DNA of 63,865 bases, filler included, from Sluysia triapertura (taxonomy: Eukaryota), in NCBI GenBank assembly GCA_046118255.1. It is 4 parts of 4 records of this genome, joined end to end, with 100 filler letters (N's around TTAATTAATTAA, not from the genome) between each part and the next. Parts side by side here need not be neighbours in the genome. Positions count along the whole stretch, not along the records: positions 21,354 to 37,231 come from JBJNIA010216141.1; 3 more parts are not named here. The stretch is one strand, 5' to 3'. Of this stretch, positions 13,400-37,640 are shown in pieces. A program made the translations under genes and the position numbers. Within the stretch, counting starts at the first letter, position 1, and each line of letters begins with the position of its first letter. The notes beneath the pieces are model-generated. The model searched no databases and had not been told where the DNA came from. It saw nothing but the letters and a program-made list of their open reading frames with translations.

Positions 13400-13620
13400 C
13401 ATAAATACACTTAGATTTGAATCTAAGAGGCCTATAAAACTTCTCATCGTGGCGGTGGCAAGTTTCTAATTTATTTTACGCGAATTTCAAAAGCTTTTAT
13501 GCCGCCGTCTGAAATAATGTGGCCAAAAAATGCGATTTTGGTTTTAATAAATGTGCATTTCTTTGGTTTTATTATGAGATAATTTTCTACAAGTCTTTGA
13601 AAAACTTGTTCTTGAGAAAA
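13400..13620 (-). mobile_element. Ty3/Gypsy reverse transcriptase remnant
   Basis: QVFQRLVENYLIIKPKKCTFIKTKIAFFGHIISDGGIK...IRNLPPP corresponds to the RT domain 6-7 pattern KPxKC.F....FLGH.IS..GI. Confidence 0.8.
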
Positions 13621-16600
13621 TATGTTTGATATAAATGAATAAAAAAATCTAAACATTAATTTTATAACAGAAAAGAAATCTAACAAAGAAATCTAATTGT
13701 TTACCCTTCGATATTGCTTATTAATTCGTTCAATGTATGATTTATGATACAACTGATTTATGTTTACATCATGTTGATTCTAATAGTATGAAAACATTAA
13801 TAAAATACTGAAACACTTCGCAAAATGTTTCATTTTTCCTATTAAAATATGTAGCTATTTTTACTATCATAATTCCTAACGGGATTATTCAAGAAATTCT
13901 TGATTTCAATCCGTAAAAAGCCATTTGTAATTTTGTTGAATACTTAGTCACTGAAACTACTTACTTATTCAAAACTAGTTACTAATTCATGGAGTAAAAA
14001 TCAGAGTATTTATTTTCATGTGAGAGCTCATACTCAGTTAATGACATAGAAAGTGGTGAAAAGATTAAAATAACAGATGTTGTTGATTCACAATCATAGT
14101 ATTTACTTTAATTTGACCAATGCCTTCATTATACGTTATTGAGATGTCAAAATAATTTGATGATATATTGTAATAAATTTCAGTATCCGTTGTTTCATTA
14201 TCAAAGTCATTATTAAGTTATATGTAGTCGTAACTTGGCCTGATGACAAAATCATCTTTATACGAAAATCATTGATGTGAATATTATCCACAGAATTAAA
14301 ATAACTACTTAAAAAGAATTTTATTAAGTATCGACTTTATTTGGCAACACTATTAATTATATTATAAGTTTAATCACTATAATAAACTGTAGCCCATTTT
14401 GCAATTGCCTCATCTTTTGTCCATGTTCTTTAGAATCGACTTTGTTGATTATCGCCATACTCTTACTAACAATACAAACAATTTAACTTTAACTTATTAA
14501 TCTTATATAATTTCAATATATTTAATTTTGCATTAAGTTTAAATTTATCACTTTCTTCATATTTAATTTCTAATAAATCTGCTTTGCTACAAAAGAATAT
14601 TTCATTTGTATCAAGATTAAAATTCTTCATTTTCATTCATTCGAATAACATCTCCGTCACATTTATTTGATTCAAATATATCATAATGTATTATTTTTAT
14701 TTTTTCATTTTCATTCGTTCTGTTTCGTTTGTAATTCTATGTTTGAAAAATCTTTTTTCGACACTGTAAATTCTCGTGTCCAATTTTTAGTCTTAATTTT
14801 ATTGACTATTGCTATATTTTTTACGTGTTTACCTTTATTAATAATACAAAGTTCATTTTCTTTCAATGTAAAACTGTTAATATTTTTAATATTTCTGATA
14901 TTGTAATTTATTCATGTTTTGTATTCAAGTTCTCGTAATTGTTTTGTATCACCACAGTTAAACATTACATGTTCATCGAAATTATAAAATTCTTCTTTCA
15001 CATTTATTCGAATTAAATTTCCACTATCTTTTTGTAGAAATACTTCCACAATGTCATCTGATCTAAATATTTTATTATTTCCTCGGTGTTCATTTTTAAG
15101 ACGTGAAATTATTCTGTTGAAATACGAATCAATTTATAGTTTCTGCTATAATCAAGCCATTTTCAATTATTAGAACGGAATAAACAACCGTTCTCATATT
15201 CTAAATAAAGTTTTCTTTTGTCAAATTTCGTTTTTCTTTTTGCTGATTCCATTTCATTTGTAAATTTTTTAAATGTTCCATTAAATACTGTGGTGAACTT
15301 ATAATCAATTATAAAAGCTAATACAAATGAATGCAAAAGAAATAATGAGAAATAACAATAAAAGGAGAAAAAAGGAGTAGGAGAATAGAATAGCAATAAT
15401 ATTATAACAATTTTCATATTATAATAATAAACAATAGTAATTTTTAGGTGGTAGTTGTATTTAAAGATTAACCTGAATATTTTCGTAATTATGATTGTAA
15501 AAATATGTCGAGTTTTTAATTGTCATGCTATTATTTGTATGATTTTTATTAGATGTGTTATGTTCGGCTGAACTTTGTTTGTGATAAATATGTTTTAGGG
15601 TTAAATATTGTTTTTGTGTTTGTTTATAAAGTGTGTGCTCGAGGGTTGTATCTGCTTTTCATAGTCTGTTTTGAGTTTCTCCTTTTTAAATTGAAACCTC
15701 AAGGATAGACTGTTGGATGATTGAAAACTATATACAATATACCAATTATTAGGAATTGTACGTTATCCTACGCCTGATAGGATACCACATTATGCTTTAA
15801 CAGATTGAGAAGCTTCTTTATCTATTTAGTCACCTAGTGGTATTCATTCTAAAGGACAACAAAACGGTAAGTTATAATAATAATGCAAGTATTTTACTGT
15901 TTCGTTACGTGCAAAATGTGTTTTAGCTGGGTTCACCTACAACTAACGGTTAATATACAATTAGCGATTTATAAGAATTTTTAAAATAAACGTATGTCTT
16001 GAACTACTTTTGTTTTTATTGACAATACTACCTATTCATTTTATTGTTCGATTGAGTAATTTATTTATTTATTTATTTCTTTTTTCGACTTACACTTTTA
16101 TGTTTATTTACGTTAAATCTAAACGAAGTTTATGACTAAAAACTTTATTCTAATGTATTTTCAAAACCAAACCACAAGTTTAACTGCACTTACTTTGTAA
16201 TTAAACAATTATTCCCACTCTAAATGCTGTGTTATTAGAGGAATTGACAATAATTACCGCGAATGTATTTGGAACCCAATAATATAATATACAGATAAAA
16301 CAATAAAACGATAAAAGAGTTATAATAAAATAAATACAATATTAAATATTGAGATTTCTCTTAATATGATAAAGTATATTTTAAAATTGATTTTAATACT
16401 AGATCTATTCTATTTGAAAGACATAAATGATTTTAATGGATTTTGATTATTATCTTATATAAGGAAAATTCATTATAAATATTTAACTTAAGTTTCTTTC
16501 ACAGCTGTTTAATCAATTTAAATAATTTAATTGTCTTGATCAATTTGACAATATCCTCCAAGTAATGAAGGATTTACAACAACTGCGAAGATACACCCCA

Positions 16601-26028: not shown

Positions 26029-28010
26029 ATGAATTTTTTGACATTTTTGTCTAAGCATTATATTAGTGAAGATTTGAAATTATTATCATATGGAACAACA
26101 GGTTATCGGCTGAAGGCAGATAAACTCTTGGGAATTACTGTTCGCATTACTATTTTAGGAGTAATCAAATCGATATTTGAAGTAAGTAAATATAGCTGAC
26201 ATTAAATTTAAAAAGAAACGTGCCATTGGATTAATGATTACTGCTTCTCATAATCCTGAATGCGATAATGGTATTAAAGTTATTGAATATAATGGAGATA
26301 TGATACCAAAAAAATGGGAAACTTTAGCTGTTGAATTTGTGAACTTTCCAAATGAAAATGTAATCGATTGCATTACAAATAAATGCAAAGATTTAAATAT
26401 AAATTTCAGTGATACAAGTAATTTAAAATTTTTAATATGATAATATAATTCAGAAAATGCAGTTATTTTAATTGGACACGACACCCGTAAAAGTTCACCT
26501 TATTTGGTTGACTTAATTAAAAAAACATTAGATTATTTAGAATCTAAGTATTTAATATTTAAGAATGTAACTACACCGCAGTTGCATTATTTTGTGAAAC
26601 AATATGTACGTTTTAATTTTTTTAATATTAAATTTAGAATTTCAATAATGAAAGTGATACTAAATCTTTAATGGAAAATTATTTTAATCGAATCATTGAA
26701 GCTTTTAATCGTGATAAATTATCAAATAATAAAATACCTGTTATTAATGTAGACTGTGCGAATGGTGTTGGTAGTTTACATTTAAGGCAATTAAAAAATA
26801 ATATATCTAATAATTTAATCATTAACTTATTTAATACATCTACAGAAGAGAATCTCAATGATAAATGTGGTGCTGATTTCGTCAAGGTTAGATTTTTTAG
26901 TACAAATTTTGAATTGTAAACATATATTATAATTATATATACATTCATTAAATCGTGAATCTAACAGAAAATGAATAACGACCAAGACATATTTAACAAA
27001 ACATCAGGTTTAAATATGAAACCATTTTGTTCCACGTACTTTCACTATTATCTACGCTAAGTAAAACCCCAATATGAATGAGTACACCGAAATTCTTCCA
27101 TTTTTAAACTCGTTAACCCTAAATTTAATAATTGTATTCAATGAAAATTCATTTTTAATTCTTCTTGTACACAAAACTTTATAACTTTAATCATGTGTTT
27201 TGTTAACATATAAGTTTTAAATTTTCACAAAAGATGAACAATATCATAATTTTCTTTCATTAAGTAAAACTTATCACGCTCCTTAATCAAAATATTTTCA
27301 AAAAACACTAATTTTAAAAATAAAATTGAAGAAATGATGTATGATTTTTTATTTAGGAGTTTAGATTACATTTATTTTTAATCTTTTCAAACCTAAACCT
27401 AAATAAAAATATAAAATTACAATTTTTGTAGGAAGGGTAGAAATAATATTTTAATATTTAGTGTTTGTGCTACACACACTATTTGATGTTTAGACTAATT
27501 TTTACGTAAAAATTATTAAATAAAAAAAGTAGATTACGTTTCTCCCTAAAACCGATAAATATTTTATACCAAAAATTATAATATACAAAAACAATAAAAC
27601 AGATGTGAATTTTATTATTTAATATAATTTAGTTAAACCAAACTGTTCCTATGTTATACAACGGTGATTCTCACGGATGCGCATTGAATATTTTACCTCA
27701 CACCCGATGGTGTTCTATAGATGGTGATGCAGATCGCTTAATATATTATTATATGCACGATTCACATTTCTGTATGTTAGACGGTGACAAAATAGCTGTT
27801 TTAATTGCACAGTATTTGTCTGAACTAGTATTTAAACGTCTAAACTGGTCTGATCAAGTCAGTATGGCTGTAATTCAAACTGCTTACGCAAATTCTGCTA
27901 GTACTGAGTTTTTACAAAATCAGCTTAATATCCATACAATTTGTGTTCCAACTGGTGTAAAGCATTTACATGAAGCTGCAAAACAATACGATATTGGAAT
28001 TTATTTTGAG
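26029..28010 (+). CDS. PGM3: Phosphoacetylglucosamine mutase, 5' five exons (26029-26181, 26216-26417, 26454-26605, 26638-26886, 27633-28010)
   Basis: The spliced frame is open and contains YGTTGYR, MITASHNP (phosphoserine), GHDTR, TTPQLHY, DCANGVG, DGDADR, QTAYAN, TGVKHLH and GIYFE. GT-AG introns of 34, 36, 32 and 746 nt. 3' exons not found. Confidence 0.93.
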
Positions 28011-29369
28011 GTATAAATAAATTAAATTAAATTACATGCAAATATTAAATTAATATTTATAGTTGAAAATAATATTTAAATTGGTATTGATTTATTTTGC
28101 CTGCGTTTATATATAATTGTGTTGATAGGTTGTTTGACAATGTTTAAAATGTGTTACATGTTTAAGTATAACTGAAAGAGGTTTGATAAAGAATATACGT
28201 CTAGAAGTGTAAACAGTGTTGTTTTTGTAATAGTAGTTAAGATGGAACGTGTGGATCAGCGCGAATCTTTCGAAAGGAAGAGGTTTAAGGTAAATGCTGC
28301 TAATATTGCTCGTCTTTGCTTCTCCAAATGAAGTTTGAAGAGAGTTTAATGTAGTATAGCTTAGTATTTAAACAATAATACATCCATTATTGTAGCTTAA
28401 TATCTTAACTATTATGCATTTACTTTTAATTTTGTAGGGTGTTTGAATATTATTAGTAATTGTTTTTAGAAGATTTAGTGAGTCTATCTGATGCCAAATA
28501 CAAACGATAAATTTACATCATATCTGATGAGCTTATACAACAGAAACCATATTTCAATGTAGAAAAATGCAATTGCGAAATTTTTATTGATAAAGTTTTT
28601 AAAAAATTTTAAAATAAATCAAAATTTTAGGAAAACCAGTTGCAATTGTAAATTAAGTTTGAAAGAAATTCTTTACTGAAAAACATAAAAATACACGTAT
28701 TTATAAATCCCAAATATATTTTTTAAAGGTTGTAAATAATTATTTTTATTTGTGAATTGATATTTTTATTTAAAATATTTTATATTTTATGCATTTTTAT
28801 GTTAGTATTTATAAGACATTATAAATATTATAAATACTATAAAAAAATTATTAAAATTACTATTCTTTAAGAATTATAATTACAATTATTAAAATTAAAA
28901 TTAATAATTATTTTAAAATTAATTCAAAAATAAGTTTCTAGAAATGAATTGTTTTAATAAATCAAATTTATAAATATGATTATTTATAGTCATAAGACTA
29001 TAAAGATACACAAAGAACATCAAAGCGACCATTTTGATATAGTGATCATATTGAACTCAGTGATTTAGTGATTAAGTGATCAAACTCAAGTTTCAAGTAG
29101 TTCCATCAATCCAAATATTCGCAACAACATTTTGATCTCAAACCTGCGATTAGAGAGATCGCAATTTCTAATTATCTTCTATATTAAGTAGTAAGTTTAT
29201 TTTAAATAATTTGTAGACTCGCAAGAGTTAAAATATCAACTTAAACTACTTAATTTTCAGTTGGTCATTAAGTCCAATTATAAAATAATACCAAAATCTA
29301 AAATCATTTTTTCGTTGACCCTTAAGGTCAATTACAAAATAACATTAGATGGATTGAGTCTTCGGGCTA

Positions 29370-29585
29370 GGTCTTTTTTCTTAACTAATAATACAGGTGA
29401 TGCAAAAGGAGAAAAACTAGGTCTAATCACTCCAGCCTTTTTATAGTATCGATTTGTTCCTTCATTTCTTTTTGGTTACATATTGGAATTCTATATGGTT
29501 TCCATCGCATGACTTTATCTTCTACTAATGGTATTTCGTGCTTAATTATAACTGAGTTCCCAATATCGTATTTATTATAGTATGC
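29370..29585 (-). pseudogene. Gypsy RT N-terminus (truncated)
   Basis: DIGNSVIIKHEIPLVEDKVMRWKPYRIP...AGVIRPSFSPFASPVLLVKKKD. Confidence 0.9.
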
Positions 29586-29928
29586 CTTTTCGATTTATCT
29601 GTAATAATATTAACATGTGTTTCTACACTATAATTAACGATTCGGCCCAATTTCGTACCAGTGTATAACCATTTATCCTCATTTGTATAATTGATCAATC
29701 GTTTGTATAATTTTCCTTCGCATATATTACAGATTTAGTCCGCTATAACAATGTCAATTTTCTCTTGGTTAATTTCTGATGCGATGAACATTATTCTTCC
29801 AGGCATAATATATGTGCCTCTACTTAGCAACCATAATGGTTCTTATAGAAATACATCGTCTTCATCTATAGTCCTACGTGAATAACTGTCCATTAATTGT
29901 GCTTTATCAAAATCTAATGCAGCACTCT

Positions 29929-30215
29929 TTAGTTGTAACAATATGTCCATTCCATTATCATATCTTCAGGACAATTTTTCATCACTCTTAGTTTTGCGTC
30001 GAATTTGCTTTGTCCTAATTCACAGTGTGCTTTCATTATACCGACTATGTGGATTGCATCTCCAGTAACACCTGCTAGGTGTGATAAATGCTCAGAAAGT
30101 ACCTTTAGTTCTTTATCAGAGAGAAGATTTTCATTTATCAATGATGCCACTCACCGGTATCTATCAGTGCCGAAATTTTCCTTCCATTAATTCTTATATC
30201 GACCATGGGTCGTTT
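29929..30215 (-). pseudogene. Retroviral-type aspartic protease
   Basis: RPMVDIRINGRKISALIDTG/(frameshift)ASLINENLL...LAGVTGDAIHIVG. Confidence 0.9.
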
Positions 30216-30419
30216 TGCTCCATTATAATTATTATTTGCATATGTCATGTATACAACATGTGATGACGGTGGTACCTCAGCCGGATATAATCGTTCCTTT
30301 TGATTTTCTTTTATTTCATTTTCTTTACTCTCAATATCGTGTATTCTCTGTATCACGATGTTTTCTTTTTGTTTTCTTTCCTTTTTTAAGGCGTTTATCT
30401 GTGATTTTACATGATGATG

Positions 30420-32233
30420 TAATAAGTATTTTGCTAAAAAGGGGGAACAACCTATTATTAGTTTCCACGTAAGTCCAGAAATTTTGTAAATTCCTACTAC
30501 CGAAAATACTTGTGATACTATTAGTGCTATAACTTTTATTAGTATGTAAATACCTATTAATCCGAAAAATGCTTGACCTAATGTTAACAACTACCCCAAA
30601 TGTGTTTTAAAGTATTCTGAGCTGCCTTTTTAAAATGATCTGGGCCTAATAGTAGCTCGAAATTTATTTGTCCTCCATTTTCTATTGTGATTTTATATAC
30701 TATGTCTGTTAATATCTTAGCCGTTTTTTTATGGGGAACAGAATTTCTTGCCAAGCGGCTTGTATGCCTTCTTTAGTATATATACCTGAATTTGGAATAT
30801 TTTTTGATGCAAAAAATTTAAGTTTTCCTTTTCATTCGGTCAATCCTATTATTTCAGGTGATTTATGTAGGAGTTATATCCGGAAGTTGTAATCAATTCT
30901 ATATTCCGGTGTCAATTGAATCTTATCATTTGGTTTTATCTTATCATTTGTAAATAATATTCTAGTTACGGGTTCTAAGTATGTTTGTATCTCACCATTT
31001 AATACAGGTAGTTCATTATTACATTGTTTCAGATCTCAATTGTACTTCTGCATTCTTACATTTGTAAGCAAATATAACCTCTTCCATCAACCTACCAAAT
31101 ACTCCTAAAGGTAGTAAAGGTGCTACTAAGTCTGGGTTGTGATTGTTATTGCAAGCTTTGTTCTCAATATTTCTCTGTTTAATTGGCAATCTCTGGCTAT
31201 CATAATTTGGTATATCTTTTCAAAATATATTAGGCTTAAATGATAGTAAAGTCTATCTTATTATTAAAATTTGTATTCAATCTTACATCTTTTGGTTACA
31301 CTCCTTTTTTCGCTTATAATATTGTTTTTTCAGTTAGGTATATCTCTTGATAATTGGTTTCCATAATTTCTTTACCACAACGGATTACTGTTCCTTTCGA
31401 TATAAATATTAATCCGTCTACTTCTTTAGTTGCCATTAAAACTGTTGGTGCTTTTGTTTCACTTAATCTTTTTCTTTGTAAAAATTCTGCATGTACTTGT
31501 TTTTTGTGTAAATCTTCTACCGGTAATTCATCATCTTTTTGATATAAATATCCAGAAACTAAGTTAAATTTTATTTGCTTTAAGAATATCAGGGAGTATT
31601 GTAATTTATTTAATTCATAAATTAAAGTCGATTCCCCGGTATCGCATCGCAACTTGTTTGATGGATTCTACAATATAATCGGGACATCACTGTGCCATTC
31701 TCAATATCAAAACTCATTATGATTTTAAACTTATTGTGTAAGTTTCTTGTGCAACTACATTGTGGTAAATTTTATCTTTGTAATCTATAGATCCTCTTTC
31801 ACGTGTTTCATCGGAATGTACGTTACCTACATTCCTAATATTATAAATTATTTTTGATTCCTTATTCTTATTTTGTCACCCTTATTTAAATTTATATAAC
31901 CAGTTTCAAATGCGTCTCTGCAATTATTCGGTAATATTTTAAAAATTTTTAGCACGTTTGGTAATTCTATAATCGAAGTGTGACTGGTGTCCACAGTACC
32001 ATGTCGCTACTGACCTTTTGGCATGCATTCTCTTACTAGAGTTGACTAAATTTCCTTCTTGATATACATTGAAGACTTGTGTCTCTTATTTGAACTCTAT
32101 TCGGCCTGGATTCTGGGCACTCTGTATCTAATAACGAAAATTTTCTACCAATTTGTGGATTACTACAATTAAAGGCCTTTATCCCGCTAGTTTTATTTAT
32201 TCCAAACATAGCTAATAGTATTACGAAGAACAT
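30420..32233 (-). pseudogene. Chuvirus-like (class III, gB-related) envelope glycoprotein, frameshifted
   Basis: Signal peptide followed by AFNCS...FSLLDTECP; WYCGHQSH; DCQLNREILRTKLAI..NPD..EVIFAYKC..QCNNELPV...YLEPVTRIL; C-terminal LGQAFFGLIGIYILIKVI...YKISGLTWKLI. These are collinear with recalled chuvirus G motifs (YDC, SLLD..C, YCGxHSH, GEVI...C, C..LPV..L.P.T.IL). Confidence 0.8.
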
Positions 32234-32333
32234 GTTATTCGTTGAACTATTTAATCTAAGTATAATATTGTTTAACGCGTTATTAAATAAATTTGATAAA
32301 ATATCAGATGATTTATTTTGTTTATTCTTTTCC

Positions 32334-33600
32334 TTAATTATATTTCTCGAACTTCCAAAGCTTAAGTTTCTTATCGATAAGTTCTATAATCTTATCTATT
32401 TTGTCTATAATGAGTGACTTTGCTCGGTCACATTGGTATATTACATATGCTAAAATTATTTTAACTATTTTATTATTTATACCTGACTTAATCTGTTTAT
32501 CTATTATTAGTTTATACTGTCCAGTATCTATAAAATTACTAATGTCCTTATCCTTATATTTATTTTCTATTTGTTTCACTAATTCTATTAGGGATAATCT
32601 GTATCCTTTCATTTTTCGAAGTACTTTCTTATATTTAACAAAGTCTGCAAATTTATGCGACAATAATGCATAAACTATATTCTTAGCATCAAAAGTACTA
32701 ATATTACCTGTATCATAATTTATTTTAGTCAATTCAATATTATTCTTGTGCAGGGGATGCGACAATCGTCGTATTTCCATTATATTCATTTTTTCTTGGT
32801 CGACCAGGACTTCTTTTTATAGTATTCGTTTCCTTATCATTAGTTTCAATGTGAGGGTTACTGTTTAAATCAATTATGTATTCGGTTTTCTTCATTATAT
32901 TTTCATCATTAATTTCCGTATTATTTGTAAGTACATCTGTATTATTTTCCATTAACTGTTTCATGTAATGTGCGGAGTTCTATCTAAATTAACACCATCA
33001 TATATTTTTGTAATAGCACAGGTTTATTTTTACGGTAATCATTGAAGAACTCGTCTGGTTCTAGCTTTCTATCATGATAATACTAGATTACATCCATTAT
33101 AGAAATATAATTCAACTTAATTATATCAATAATTTCTTCTACTATTGTAGTCACGGGTAATTCTATAAAAACGTTAATTGACTCATTAATTAATACATTT
33201 ATTTTCATTAGTGCACTGGGCTCTTTGACCCTTTCCATTTGATCAATTTTCCTTAACAATGTCGTAGCTTTTGCTTTATAAGAACTATTTTCTTGACTTA
33301 AAATCACTAAATTCGATTTTATACTTTGTCCATCAATCCAAGATATATCTGAAGTGAGTAAATTTTCCATAGTTTTATCAATATCTTTCGCTTGCGTTTT
33401 CACTGTTTAGAGCCGATTCGGAGTTGTTTACTTCTTTTTCTTTGTTAACTGAAATTATAATTATTTCGTTTTCACTAAAATTATCTTTTTGCCTATTTAC
33501 CTTTATTTCCTCTTCAGGTATTTTTATTTTGTTTTTATCATTTTTATATTCTCCATTTATCGGTACTCGATGGATATTATTTGTACTTATATATTCATCA
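32334..33600 (-). pseudogene. Unassigned coding region of the element, including an AT-hook
   Basis: Consecutive minus-strand ORF pieces (33083-33403, 32740-32964, 32334-32789); KRSPGRPRK. Confidence 0.5.
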
Positions 33601-34926
33601 TCTATTATTACTTGATAGAGATATCATTTGTATTTTTATTCCAATCATCCAAAATTTTTTCCGCTTTCTTGTTTTCTTCTGTTTTGATCTTGCTATTCTT
33701 TCTTTTTTCTTTATAAATTGTTCATATAAATAGTTTACGAATGTTTCATCTTCATCTTGTTTTCTCGTTAATCTGTTTTGTTTTTCTTCATCATTGTCAT
33801 CCAATTTTAACCTGTGGTATTCATACAGTATTTTTGTTTCATCTTCTGTCAATCTACCCCAACTTCTTCCATATCCATTTCCTTCATATTCTTCACCAAG
33901 GCTGTCATAATCATATTCTTGTGTTTCATAGTTATAATTTACTTGTGTCCTTTTATTATTTTTCTCATTAAACCTTACCTTTCTTGATGGAGCTTGTCCC
34001 TTTATTGGTTGATAATTTTGCATCCTACTTAAGTCTTGGTTAAAAGTATCTGATTTTAATTTCTTACTATTTCGTGCGTAATGTCTTTTTCTATTACAAT
34101 TATGACATACTTTTATAATTATTATTTGTAAATTCCTCATTATTCGGCCACCTTGGCGAATGTCTGCTCAAATTCTCTTGTTTCATTATAACTTATTGCA
34201 AATCCTCTTGATCTTCCTCTTAGATTATAATCATTTTTTCGTGTGTTAAAATTATTTCTCCTATAATTACTGGTATTATTATCTGAAAAAGACGTATTTC
34301 TAAATGTATCGTCTCTTAAATTATATCCTGGGCTCTTTTCTCTCTTATCATCATCACATACAAAATTTACATTATTCTTTTCTTCAAATTTAGATCTCTC
34401 TATTCCTCTTAATTTTTTGACTATCTCCTTAAATGATTGATTGTCTATTAAATTAACGTAGATTCTTAACTCCGGACGAAGTCCGCTCTTAAAGAAGTTA
34501 TTTCCTTCTTATCTTCTGGAATCTTAGTTCGGGCCACTGGACACTTGAGTGCGCATGCATATTCGTATACAGTTTCGAGAGGTTTTGTTTTATATTTAAC
34601 ATTCGTGTGTAGTATTTGCATTTGTAATCCAAAGAGATTTCTTCCGTGAAAGCGTCAACAAAAGTGTTCCAGTTAATTTTCTTTGTGTTGTCTATTTCTT
34701 TGTATGTTTGAATGGCAATACCTGTAAGATAATTTTGGATTCTCTTAATTTTCTCTAATTCCGACCAGCCATTAGCCTCACACAAGTTCTCTTCGGCTCC
34801 GTTAAACTTACGCATTTCTGGTAATACTACTGCGGGTTTTATGTCCCGTGCAAACTGTAATTCTTTAAATTCATTAATTGGTACTGACTTTTTAATGTCT
34901 TCTAATACAACTTTTATATCCTGCAA
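33598..34926 (-). pseudogene. Gag (capsid-like region and degenerate CCHC knuckle)
   Basis: KFNG...CEANGWSELEKIKRIQNYLTGIA...WNTFVDAFTEE; FFKSGLRPE; CHNCNRKRHYARNS. Confidence 0.85.
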
Positions 34927-34961
34927 TGAAATGCCAATATTTTCAAAAATGTTTCACGTTG

Positions 34962-34979
34962 GTCCCAATTCGGGCGCCA
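34962..34979 (-). promoter_or_regulatory. Primer binding site (tRNA-Lys)
   Basis: TGGCGCCCGAATTGGGAC, 16/18 identical to the canonical Lys PBS TGGCGCCCGAACAGGGAC, just upstream of gag. Confidence 0.85.
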
Positions 34980-35419
34980 AATTTTGCTGAGTTTCTGTTT
35001 TCTTTTAACTCTAAAACTTATCTAACAGCAAAATAGATTAATATTCAGAGTCAGTATAATACTTAGTAATAGCGTATCTTTAAATAACGTGAAAATATGC
35101 GTTATTTTACTTCAATGTGCGTTACAAGTAATTCGTGGAAAAATACTGTGTGGAGGGCGAAAATTGTTTTATTTTATACAATTTATTATTATTTGTTTTT
35201 AAACTTTTATAAAAGATTGGAATTAGACAAACTATAATTAAACAAAAACGATTTAAAAATATTTTTATTATATTTAACAAAATAGGCGTAAGGCCTGTGA
35301 AAATTAGCAAATTCAACATTAAAACAAAATTTAACACGTTAACGAAATTTGTTGTTTTATTAATAAAATTTAAGCAATAAAAAAACAAGAAAAATGTTAA
35401 TAACAATAAATAAATTAGA

Positions 35420-35855
35420 TTACCATCATCAATATTAAAATTGTAGTTCGGGACGTGCACCTTCGTTGGAATAACCGATGTAAATATGTGACAACATTGA
35501 CTATGATATACTTTATTCAAAATGGTTATCATTCCTTTTAAATAGGAATATCCACAATTGGAATCATGTCGAGGATCATTATATACCGTAGTTTTGTCTA
35601 TGGGACATGTTGTTTTATCACGAAATACGCATGTAGAAATACATATTATTTTGGAAAGATTATATTTACAAAGTATAAAACATTGTCATTAATTTTTGTA
35701 TTATCTCTAGAAAGATCAAAATCATTCTTCATGTTATTGTACAGACCACCAACTTTAGCAGCTAGATGAATAGTTGGTTTATATTTCATAAATAACTCTT
35801 TGCGTTCTTGTATATTTTTTAATTCGGCATCTCTGGAACTACAAAACATGTATAG
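35420..35855 (-). pseudogene. GFUS: GDP-L-fucose synthase fragment (frameshifted)
   Basis: SSRDAEL...KPTIHLAAKVGGLYNNMK..INDNVL/(frameshift)CISTCVFRDKTTCPID..SNCGYSYLKGMI..FTSVIPT..NFNIDDG then a GT donor. The N-terminal GxxGxxG motif is absent. Confidence 0.88.
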
Positions 35856-37231
35856 ATCCAAATAACATACGTCGTTATCATGATAATCTCTTCTCGGTTT
35901 TGCATATAAATAATGATTATCCGTATTTAATATAATGTTCATTAGATTTACGCTAAGTAGGACATTTCTGTATAGAAAATTTGTTTCCTCCTTGTGATGT
36001 GATGAGAACATGTAAGCATAAACGAACAATAATAACTTTAGCATTTTTACAACTAATGAAAAATATTGATTTTATTTTTATAATGTAATTCCTATTGATA
36101 ATAATACTTTAATATAATAAATATATAAATTTTAACTGTTTCCTAAGTTACCATATTTCTCTTAGTGTCAGATTTTCTTAAAGTTTATAAAATATCGATT
36201 CTGATGAAATGTTTTCAATGTATTCAAGAATATTACATTCAAACAAGATCTTGTATCTTATAAATATTTATTTAAGTGTTAAACAAACAATTAAAGCGTT
36301 ATTTAAAATGTTGCTATATTTCCGTAGTGATTATTTCGGTATATATATTGAAACTTGATAATTATTTGGTTTATATCTTGAAAATAAAGAAGTAAATATC
36401 ATTTAGAAATGCTGTGCTTAATTTAATTATAAAGTACAACTGCACTAAAACGTATTTGTGCTTTACAATCTAAAAATTGTTAACGTAATAGTTCATTTGT
36501 CAAAATCGAAACCAAATACAACAATAAGTTCAGAATTTCAAACTTAATTTAAAATTTATGACATCCGAAATCTTTAGATACAAGCAAAAACACAATCTTG
36601 AATATAAGTTAAATTATTGGCTTGATAGTCACTTTAAAACTCCATTTACAATAGTCATTCGTTCAATTTTAACTTATCAATAATATCGCTAAAACTCAGT
36701 AAATGTTATGATTGTTGCGTTAAATCAATAACTAAAGGCAAATGTTAGAAGCTTGTTAAATAATCGGCCACGTTTTTCATACATTATAAATAATGTATCA
36801 GTAATACAATGTAAATATTAATTATAGAAGCAATTTTGTTGTCTATATTGAATATTACATTGCTGTTACGTAAGATGATTACTTTCAAGTCATTATTATT
36901 CATTTTTAAATACTATTGCCAGATATTTTGATGAAATTATGAACTATCTTATCTACTTTCAAAAATTTTGATTTTAATATAGTATTTAAAAATCTTGTTT
37001 CGTAATATTCAAAATTATACATAACAATAGTGTGATAATAATCACGATAAATACAAATGATGGTCATAATTAATTTTCTTTAAATTACAATAACTAGATT
37101 CATTTATTGCAGAAAGTTTCAATAAATATTTTTGATTGTCAGATATTAACGGTAATTTTTCAATATTTTGTATATAGAGTGCAACAATTAAACAAATTGC
37201 ACATAGTAATAATATAATTATTCCAATTAAT

Positions 37232-37331: not shown

Positions 37332-37640
37332 GCAGGGATTCTCTACTAAAAATATCTCTTAAATAGCTAAAAATCAAATGTTAATTTAATCAAAATTACG
37401 TAGAGATTTTTCACTAAAAATATCTTTCAAAATGTCTGAAAATCAAATATTGTTTTAACAAAAAATTGTGCAGGGATTCTCTACTAAAAATATCTCTTAA
37501 ATAGCTAAAAATCAAATGTTAATTTAATCAAAATTACGTAGAGATTTTTCACTAAAAATATCTTTCAAAATGTCTGAAAATCAAATATTGTTTTAACAAA
37601 AAATTGTGCAGGGATTCTCTACTAAAAATATCTCTTAAAT
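37332..37640. repeat. About 138-bp tandem repeat (2.2 copies) built from two related ~69-bp halves
   Basis: Units start at 37332, 37470 and 37608; both halves contain CTAAAAATATCT...AAAATCAAAT. Confidence 0.9.

Follow-up and report, generated by a model that had tools for sequence, protein, structure and literature searches.

A retroelement copy in Sluysia triapertura (assembly GCA_046118255.1) carries its envelope gene (env) between gag and the protease gene, which raises the question of how Env would be produced from this position and on which side of a membrane the proteins encoded around it would come to lie. An initial annotation had proposed that Env is embedded in one polyprotein through an internal signal peptide, so that Gag is cytosolic, Env lumenal, and the enzymes cytosolic and tethered to the membrane. 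Based on the copy and its relatives, we consider it likely that this is a decayed, Burro-like GAG-ENV-POL element of the Ty3/gypsy type, with a polyprotein that would be threaded into the endoplasmic reticulum (ER) by an internal signal and a single Env anchor.

The element copy in the window

The window, which is the whole stretch of 63,865 nucleotides that was analysed, has a G+C content of ~24%; it contains genes split by introns, besides (TAT)n runs and assembly gaps, and is therefore eukaryotic. The retroelement spans ~35126 to 29350 on the minus strand, and its parts follow one another 5' to 3' as an LTR-like start, a primer-binding-site (PBS)-like stretch, gag, a ubiquitin-like spacer, a signal-like segment, Env, a linker, the protease (PR), and the start of the reverse transcriptase (RT) (Table 1). 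The copy stops inside RT at ~29350, and no RT core, RNase H (RH), integrase (IN), or 3' LTR was found in it. The LTR candidate had no blastn partner in the window, and there was no second LTR in the window or in the related loci L001-L005, L040, and L059; summed contig depth in sequencing run X1 drops at this candidate. The adjoining PBS-like stretch we take to resemble a tRNA-Lys site.

The gag pieces match Gag from several relatives, among them P0013, P0008, L059, and L040 (best tblastn E 8e-9), and the zinc knuckle remnant at 34107 lacks its last Cys. The spacer domain was detected with a profile built from 12 relatives, with the window left out, and Pfam ubiquitin/UBX matches the same domain in L040 and L005 (E ~1e-3). 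The family profile matches along the entire Env span, the Env membrane region corresponds to PF24664 positions 545-648 (E 6.6e-8), and the protease matches both Pfam RVP (E 0.002) and, in two frames, the family profile. No support was found for a Bcl-2-like identity of the 160-aa open stretch, which matches no Bcl-2-like profile, Pfam family, or named Atlas cluster.

Table 1. Features of the element copy, with positions along the window, and of the second membrane cassette in related proteins, with residue positions
Feature	Position	Strand	Evidence
Putative short 5' LTR, starts TGTAA	34980..35126	-	direct reading
Primer-binding-site-like stretch, TGGCGCCCG...	34962..34979	-	direct reading
gag, capsid-like, two frame pieces and zinc knuckle remnant	34060..34953	-	tblastn
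Helical and ubiquitin-like spacer domain, common to relatives	33044..33412	-	profile E 3e-4
160-aa open stretch, placed where some relatives have a Bcl-2-like domain	32334..32816	-	ORF
Signal-peptide-like internal segment with hydrophobic core, polar end, and small -3/-1 residues	32183..32233	-	
Class III (gB/chuvirus-like) Env ectodomain, with stops and frame changes	30591..32182	-	PF24664 pieces, family profile
Env membrane region: strong hydrophobic segment, then weaker amphipathic segment with conserved G-C-x-P	30420..30590	-	
Charged linker (glycoprotein tail), L-Y-P at 30290	30207..30419	-	
Aspartic protease, D-T-G at 30161, frame break just after the motif	29950..30206	-	
Reverse transcriptase start; element cut off	29356..29576	-	tblastn, profile
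Second membrane cassette in relatives	P0002 3296-3616; P0005 3298-3726; P0013 2603-2756		

Env coding in the window is spread across all three frames, with stops, and the copy is a 3'-truncated pseudogene in which the 3' half is absent. Two stop-free frames on the minus strand bear on the proposal. The first (32383-32036) has 50 open codons ahead of a Met at 32233, and after this Met come an 11-residue hydrophobic core and an A-F-N-C motif at 32176. At least 45 stop-free codons had been claimed before the Met, and this count stands (46 from the first residue given in the annotation); however, this open run shares 50 nt with the 160-aa ORF ahead of it, which lies in a different frame, and some of the 45 codons therefore probably fall outside the coding frame. 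The second (30590-30138, 150 aa) leads from the Env anchor through a linker of 71 residues (13 K/R and 9 D/E) to the D-T-G of the protease, which bears out the statement that a charged linker connects the C-terminal hydrophobic segments directly to the protease.

By chance, 50 open codons in a row are found at 0-1.3% of the off-frame positions of four AT-rich relatives and in 0.8% of shuffled element DNA, while chance runs of 33 codons reach 1-5% and runs of 140 codons occur at 0% in the same off-frame and shuffled test. The anchor-to-protease frame is far beyond chance, and the open run before the Met is modest (~1% for 50 codons). With its stops, its frame breaks, and its end in RT, the window copy is incapable of showing one ORF by itself; it is a poor test object, and intact natural relatives are better.

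One reading frame from gag to integrase in relatives

Relatives were collected by searching with the 150-aa ORF of the window, which led to P0001 and from there to 12 longer proteins, in a search limited to long proteins. Five of the proteins found (P0002, P0005, P0007, P0008, and P0013; 2.9-3.9k aa) carry the CCHC knuckle, PF24664, PR, RT, RH, and IN in a single chain, and the Pol order PR-RT-RH-IN is thus seen in relatives, whereas the window copy has only PR and the RT start. At the DNA level, env is present in four of 78 metagenome loci (L001, L005, L040, and L059). The DNA is stop-free from knuckle to integrase in L005 (3184 codons) and L059 (2693 codons), and from the spacer to the integrase in L001 (3426 codons, 5' end open). 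In the single ORFs of these intact relatives, a gag-pol frameshift is unneeded. The Bcl-2-like domain was found in six of the 17 relatives scanned (PDB Bcl-2/Bcl-xL, E ~1e-3), and an ankyrin domain also occurs among relatives. A protease-like match on the Gag side of P0004 fell inside the ubiquitin-like domain and was dropped. Among viral contigs, 31 pattern matches yielded no confirmed case.

A profile search without length limit returned 523 proteins at E 1e-30 or better. Among the best 150 of these 523, long or fragmentary retroelement proteins come first, followed by ~100 free glycoproteins with lengths of 620-730 aa. In a tree made by a quick method from 57 of 134 full-length Env, the 24 embedded Env form one clade with support 99, and three further rows labelled as embedded group among the free proteins. 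Each of the 24 full-length Env in this retroelement clade is preceded by at least 124 in-frame residues, and 22 of them are followed by at least 182; 12 of the 24 came from the search limited to long proteins, and several relatives are near-duplicates, so these counts are not independent. Altogether, a single gag-env-pol polyprotein is supported for the intact relatives, in both protein and DNA, but not for the window organism's own family. The idea that env lies within one polyprotein therefore holds for the relatives, while stops and frame changes interrupt the continuity once assumed for the window copy.

The fourth env-bearing locus bears on how much of each product would be made. In L040, a single in-frame TGA (L040:3058-3060) separates a Bcl-2-like domain from the Env signal; no Met follows it, and it is either a lesion or a read-through site. 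Capsids require far more Gag than Pol, and one could suppose that the full-length polyprotein is one product of the same ORF, with splicing, read-through, or early termination giving excess Gag and/or an env-less Gag-Pol, Pol packaged in the usual way, and the Env tether incidental. The demand for Gag speaks for this arrangement, and the L040 stop between the Gag-side domains and the signal would fit read-through. However, the stop is found in one of the four env-bearing loci, the homologous position is open in P0006, and no conserved slippery heptamer was found upstream of the signal in L001, L005, L040, or L059. We regard this alternative, the main rival to the model proposed below, as unlikely.

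An internal segment homologous to a signal peptide

In all 30 relatives compared, an 11-residue hydrophobic core stands shortly ahead of a conserved [AGV][FY]DC motif. At one fixed site, the residues at -3 and -1 are small in 28 of the 30, compared with 11% of background positions, and the signal segment in the window follows the same -3/-1 cleavage rule. A Met before the hydrophobic core is present in only nine of the 30. Among the free homologues in the best 150 of 523 matches, the motif lies at most 45 residues from the start in 86 of 101 (median 23.5), behind an ordinary N-terminal signal. Because the motif position is shared and an own Met is scarce, the internal segment is taken as the homologue of the free protein's signal peptide, mostly unreachable from a start of its own. 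Judged from the residues around the site, signal peptidase would cleave at this internal segment.

The Met at 32233 begins the hydrophobic core in the window, and this would also suit an env with its own reading frame in the window organism's family, in which case the open codons upstream would be leftover or due to chance. The 50-nt overlap with another frame and the 1-5% chance of 33 open codons agree with such a frame, and in the protein records P0054 and P0057 the annotated start is a Met at the signal. However, 21 of the 30 relatives lack a Met before the core, the frame from anchor to protease is open even in the decayed window copy, and the proteins that match the signal region most closely (P0045, P0046, and P0013) are single ORFs. 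An independent env frame is therefore very improbable, and an internal signal within the polyprotein is the reading that we follow.

Env fold, membrane anchor, and probable cytosolic tail

A structure model of the L005 region from Env to PR (116 sequences, pLDDT 79.5) matches herpesvirus gB (E 1.5e-13) and a chuvirus-like G (E 2.5e-44), which identifies the Env as class III. Fourteen Cys columns of Env are conserved in 12 or more of the 13 relatives compared, which fits a lumenal domain. N-glycosylation sequons give no such sign: in Env they are rarer than chance (22 compared with 42.6), and their positions are not fixed (best column five of 13).

At the C-terminal side of Env, the L005 model has a 56-residue helix, a turn, and a second helix. 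Insertion scores, calculated by a crude, home-made approximation, have medians of -1.0 (favourable) for segment 1 and +3.1 for segment 2, and segment 2 is favourable in none of 26 polyproteins. In the free homologues from the best 150 of 523 matches, the same hydrophobic pair is followed by a tail of ~60 residues, and segment 2 scored favourable in 24 of 100.

These tails also indicate where the glycoprotein ends. A ΦYP motif, which we take to recall ALIX-type late domains, is present in the tails of 56 of 100 free homologues (4.1 in shuffled sequences; from the best 150 of 523) and in the linker of 18 of 26 polyproteins (2.1 in shuffled sequences; window included), mostly 30-60 residues before D-T-G. 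As the motif is common to free tails and polyprotein linkers, the protease is fused where the free glycoprotein ends. The related motif YPx(1-3)L was seen 29 times in the tails of the free PF24664-like glycoproteins (P0055-P0187; from the best 150 of 523), compared with 3.3 in shuffled sequences.

If both C-terminal hydrophobic segments spanned the membrane as a hairpin, or if the upstream segment were an uncleaved anchor, the topology would differ. Two conserved hydrophobic segments and the helix-turn-helix of the L005 model could be read in this way; the gB-type ectodomains of some elements are flanked by two transmembrane domains (PMC13524379), and the positive-inside count around segment 1 runs in the wrong direction for a single span (2.3 K/R before and 1.1 after). 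On the other side, a hairpin would make PR-RT-IN lumenal and so separate it from Gag and RNA; segment 2 contains K and P and scores unfavourably in 26 of 26 polyproteins; and the uncleaved anchor is opposed by the cleavage-site rule, which applies in 28 of 30 relatives. We regard these variants as very improbable. The predicted topology, with one span and a cytosolic tail, is well supported by comparison. The initial proposal of an internal signal peptide and a cytosolic protease is accordingly backed by the signal anatomy, the anchor, the tail, and the pairing of signals with anchors, while the positive-inside count and the sequons do not agree with it.

Additional membrane cassettes and proteases

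Most complete relatives, including L005, L059, and L002-L004, have a second signal-ectodomain-anchor cassette after the integrase (Table 1), and L001 has a third signal and anchor cassette between two protease copies; the window copy breaks off ahead of this region. Because these extra membrane proteins come as pairs of signal and anchor, every enzyme would be kept on Gag's side. Aspartic protease copies after Env number one to four, each with D-T/S-G and some behind the integrase (P0002-P0015, L001, L005, and L059); no description of multiple protease copies was found in the sections covered of the Burro and errantivirus literature (PMC6431247, PMC13524379).

Downstream of the polyprotein, the accessory ORFs L001:10617-12104 and L002:8592-9920 match a DEDDh exonuclease (RNase_T, E 1e-5 and 6e-9, respectively), and other accessory ORFs of 460-610 aa have no Pfam match.

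Proposed processing of the polyprotein

We propose that Gag and the ubiquitin-like spacer, with a Bcl-2-like domain in some members, would be made in the cytosol, after which the internal signal would open translocation. Signal peptidase would cut a few residues ahead of [AG][FY]DC, and Gag would stay tethered through the signal stub. The Env ectodomain, with its 14 Cys, would fold in the lumen, and translocation would end at the one Env anchor. The tail and the enzymes behind it (protease, RT, RNase H, and integrase) would then be cytosolic, to be released by the protease that the element encodes. No frameshift would be required, and the ratio of Gag to Env to Pol would be 1:1:1 unless splicing, read-through, or turnover alters it, and Pol may enter particles through the Env tether. 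The comparative evidence makes exact predictions for this model, namely a signal peptidase site, one span, and a cytosolic tail with ΦYP.

Flavivirus and alphavirus polyproteins are processed in a similar way. Where core meets E1 in hepatitis C virus (HCV), the capsid protein ends in the envelope signal peptide, is cut by signal peptidase, and stays membrane-anchored (PMC5402940). The proteins and replication of HCV, flaviviruses, and alphaviruses are unrelated to those of the element, and the likeness is one of analogy, not membership. A fuller flavivirus-like scheme is more tentative, and on balance we find it somewhat doubtful: paired signal and anchor cassettes (two or three per chain) and up to four cytosolic proteases would act together with a membrane-bound Gag and with Pol carried on the Env tail, so that capsid, fusogen, second surface protein, and enzymes would co-assemble on one ER patch and Pol would be packaged via Env and not by way of a Gag-Pol frameshift. 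If the model is true, a reverse-transcribing element would settle both the Gag:Pol ratio and the packaging of Pol with neither frameshift nor read-through, using the logic by which RNA viruses thread their polyproteins through membranes.

Relationship to known elements

The layout had been taken as new in the initial annotation; it has already been published for Burro. Burro/GYPSM1 (Arkhipova and Yushenova 2019, PMC6431247) are gypsy-like LTR retrotransposons found in planarians, giant in size (over 20 kb) and with long LTRs and MATH/BIR/RING cargo. One ORF encodes Gag with CCHC knuckles, a ubiquitin-like domain, an env that is related to the fusion proteins of mononegaviruses and sits in frame between gag and PR, and then RT-RH-IN; decaying copies with stops and frameshifts are also mentioned there. 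The window element shares the ubiquitin-like domain between Gag and Env, and its relatives share the Bcl-2-like and ankyrin domains. It differs in that its gag-to-env spacer has only ~620 codons, its LTR candidate is short, and its 3' half is absent; no Bcl-2, MATH, BIR, or RING domain was seen in the window. Neither signal peptide nor topology is dealt with in the Burro section of PMC6431247, nor are multiple protease copies or a second membrane protein. We refer to the window element as Burro-like, not Burro, with the understanding that it is likened by published description and not by direct sequence comparison.

Nematode endogenous retroviruses (NERV) reportedly have a continuous gag-env-pro-pol ORF. 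Their Env lies before pol (Sacco et al. 2022, doi 10.1099/jgv.0.001739, as cited in PMC13524379), and GAG-ENV-POL errantiviruses of the HSV/gB type are described from flatworms, nematodes, and bryozoans (Chary and Hayashi, eLife 2026, PMC13524379). The window copy resembles these errantiviruses in its order gag-env-PR-RT, its gB-type Env, and its Ty3/gypsy Pol. In supplement 2 of that paper, the Schmidtea Env rows share short motifs with the Env pieces of the window, and the nematode rows are less like the window Env than the Schmidtea rows, both as compared by eye and unaligned. In contrast to the polyprotein considered here, GAG, ENV, and POL are treated as ORFs in the sections covered of PMC13524379, and polyprotein processing is not spelled out there.

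A literature search on the processing model found only PMC13524379 and PMC6431247 relevant, and neither describes signal peptidase processing in the text sections covered; their figures and Sacco et al. 2022 may do so. As gene order and single ORF are already published, these findings are ordinary for the group, and the processing model is the only fresh part.

Copies in a sequencing run and surroundings of the element

One sequencing run, X1, was matched to the window (share 0.34), and no RNA run was among the matches listed. Across 28000-36500, 5,467 X1 contigs align, most of them 85-95% alike. Summed depth is 4,000-67,000 over the element compared with 21-1,300 outside, which points to many diverged copies, although depth does not give a copy number and X1 may come from the same sample as the window. 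High-depth length differences occur near some frame breaks inside env. For X1 contigs on the gag-env spacer, no length difference is listed at the frame break immediately before the signal, and this is uninformative either way.

Degenerate coding pieces at 35400-36071 (-), which by likeness we presume to derive from a GDP-L-fucose synthase (Pfam Epimerase, E 0.016), adjoin the 5' end of the element. Exons of phosphoacetylglucosamine mutase (PGM3/AGM1) lie at 26186-28016 (+), with matches scattered over fungi, nematode, and rotifer at 48-59%; a short-motif search in the window did not find the next PGM3 exon. A lone RT fragment of another gypsy-like element is present at 13447-13647 (-), and a tandem repeat of 69/138 nt lies at 37332-37640 beside an assembly gap. 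In one X1 contig (depth 17), 28034 is connected to 36060 through 40 other letters. The 8-kb block from 28034 to 36060, which includes the element and the GDP-fucose-synthase-like pieces and begins directly after a PGM3 exon, may be lacking in another allele or paralogue.
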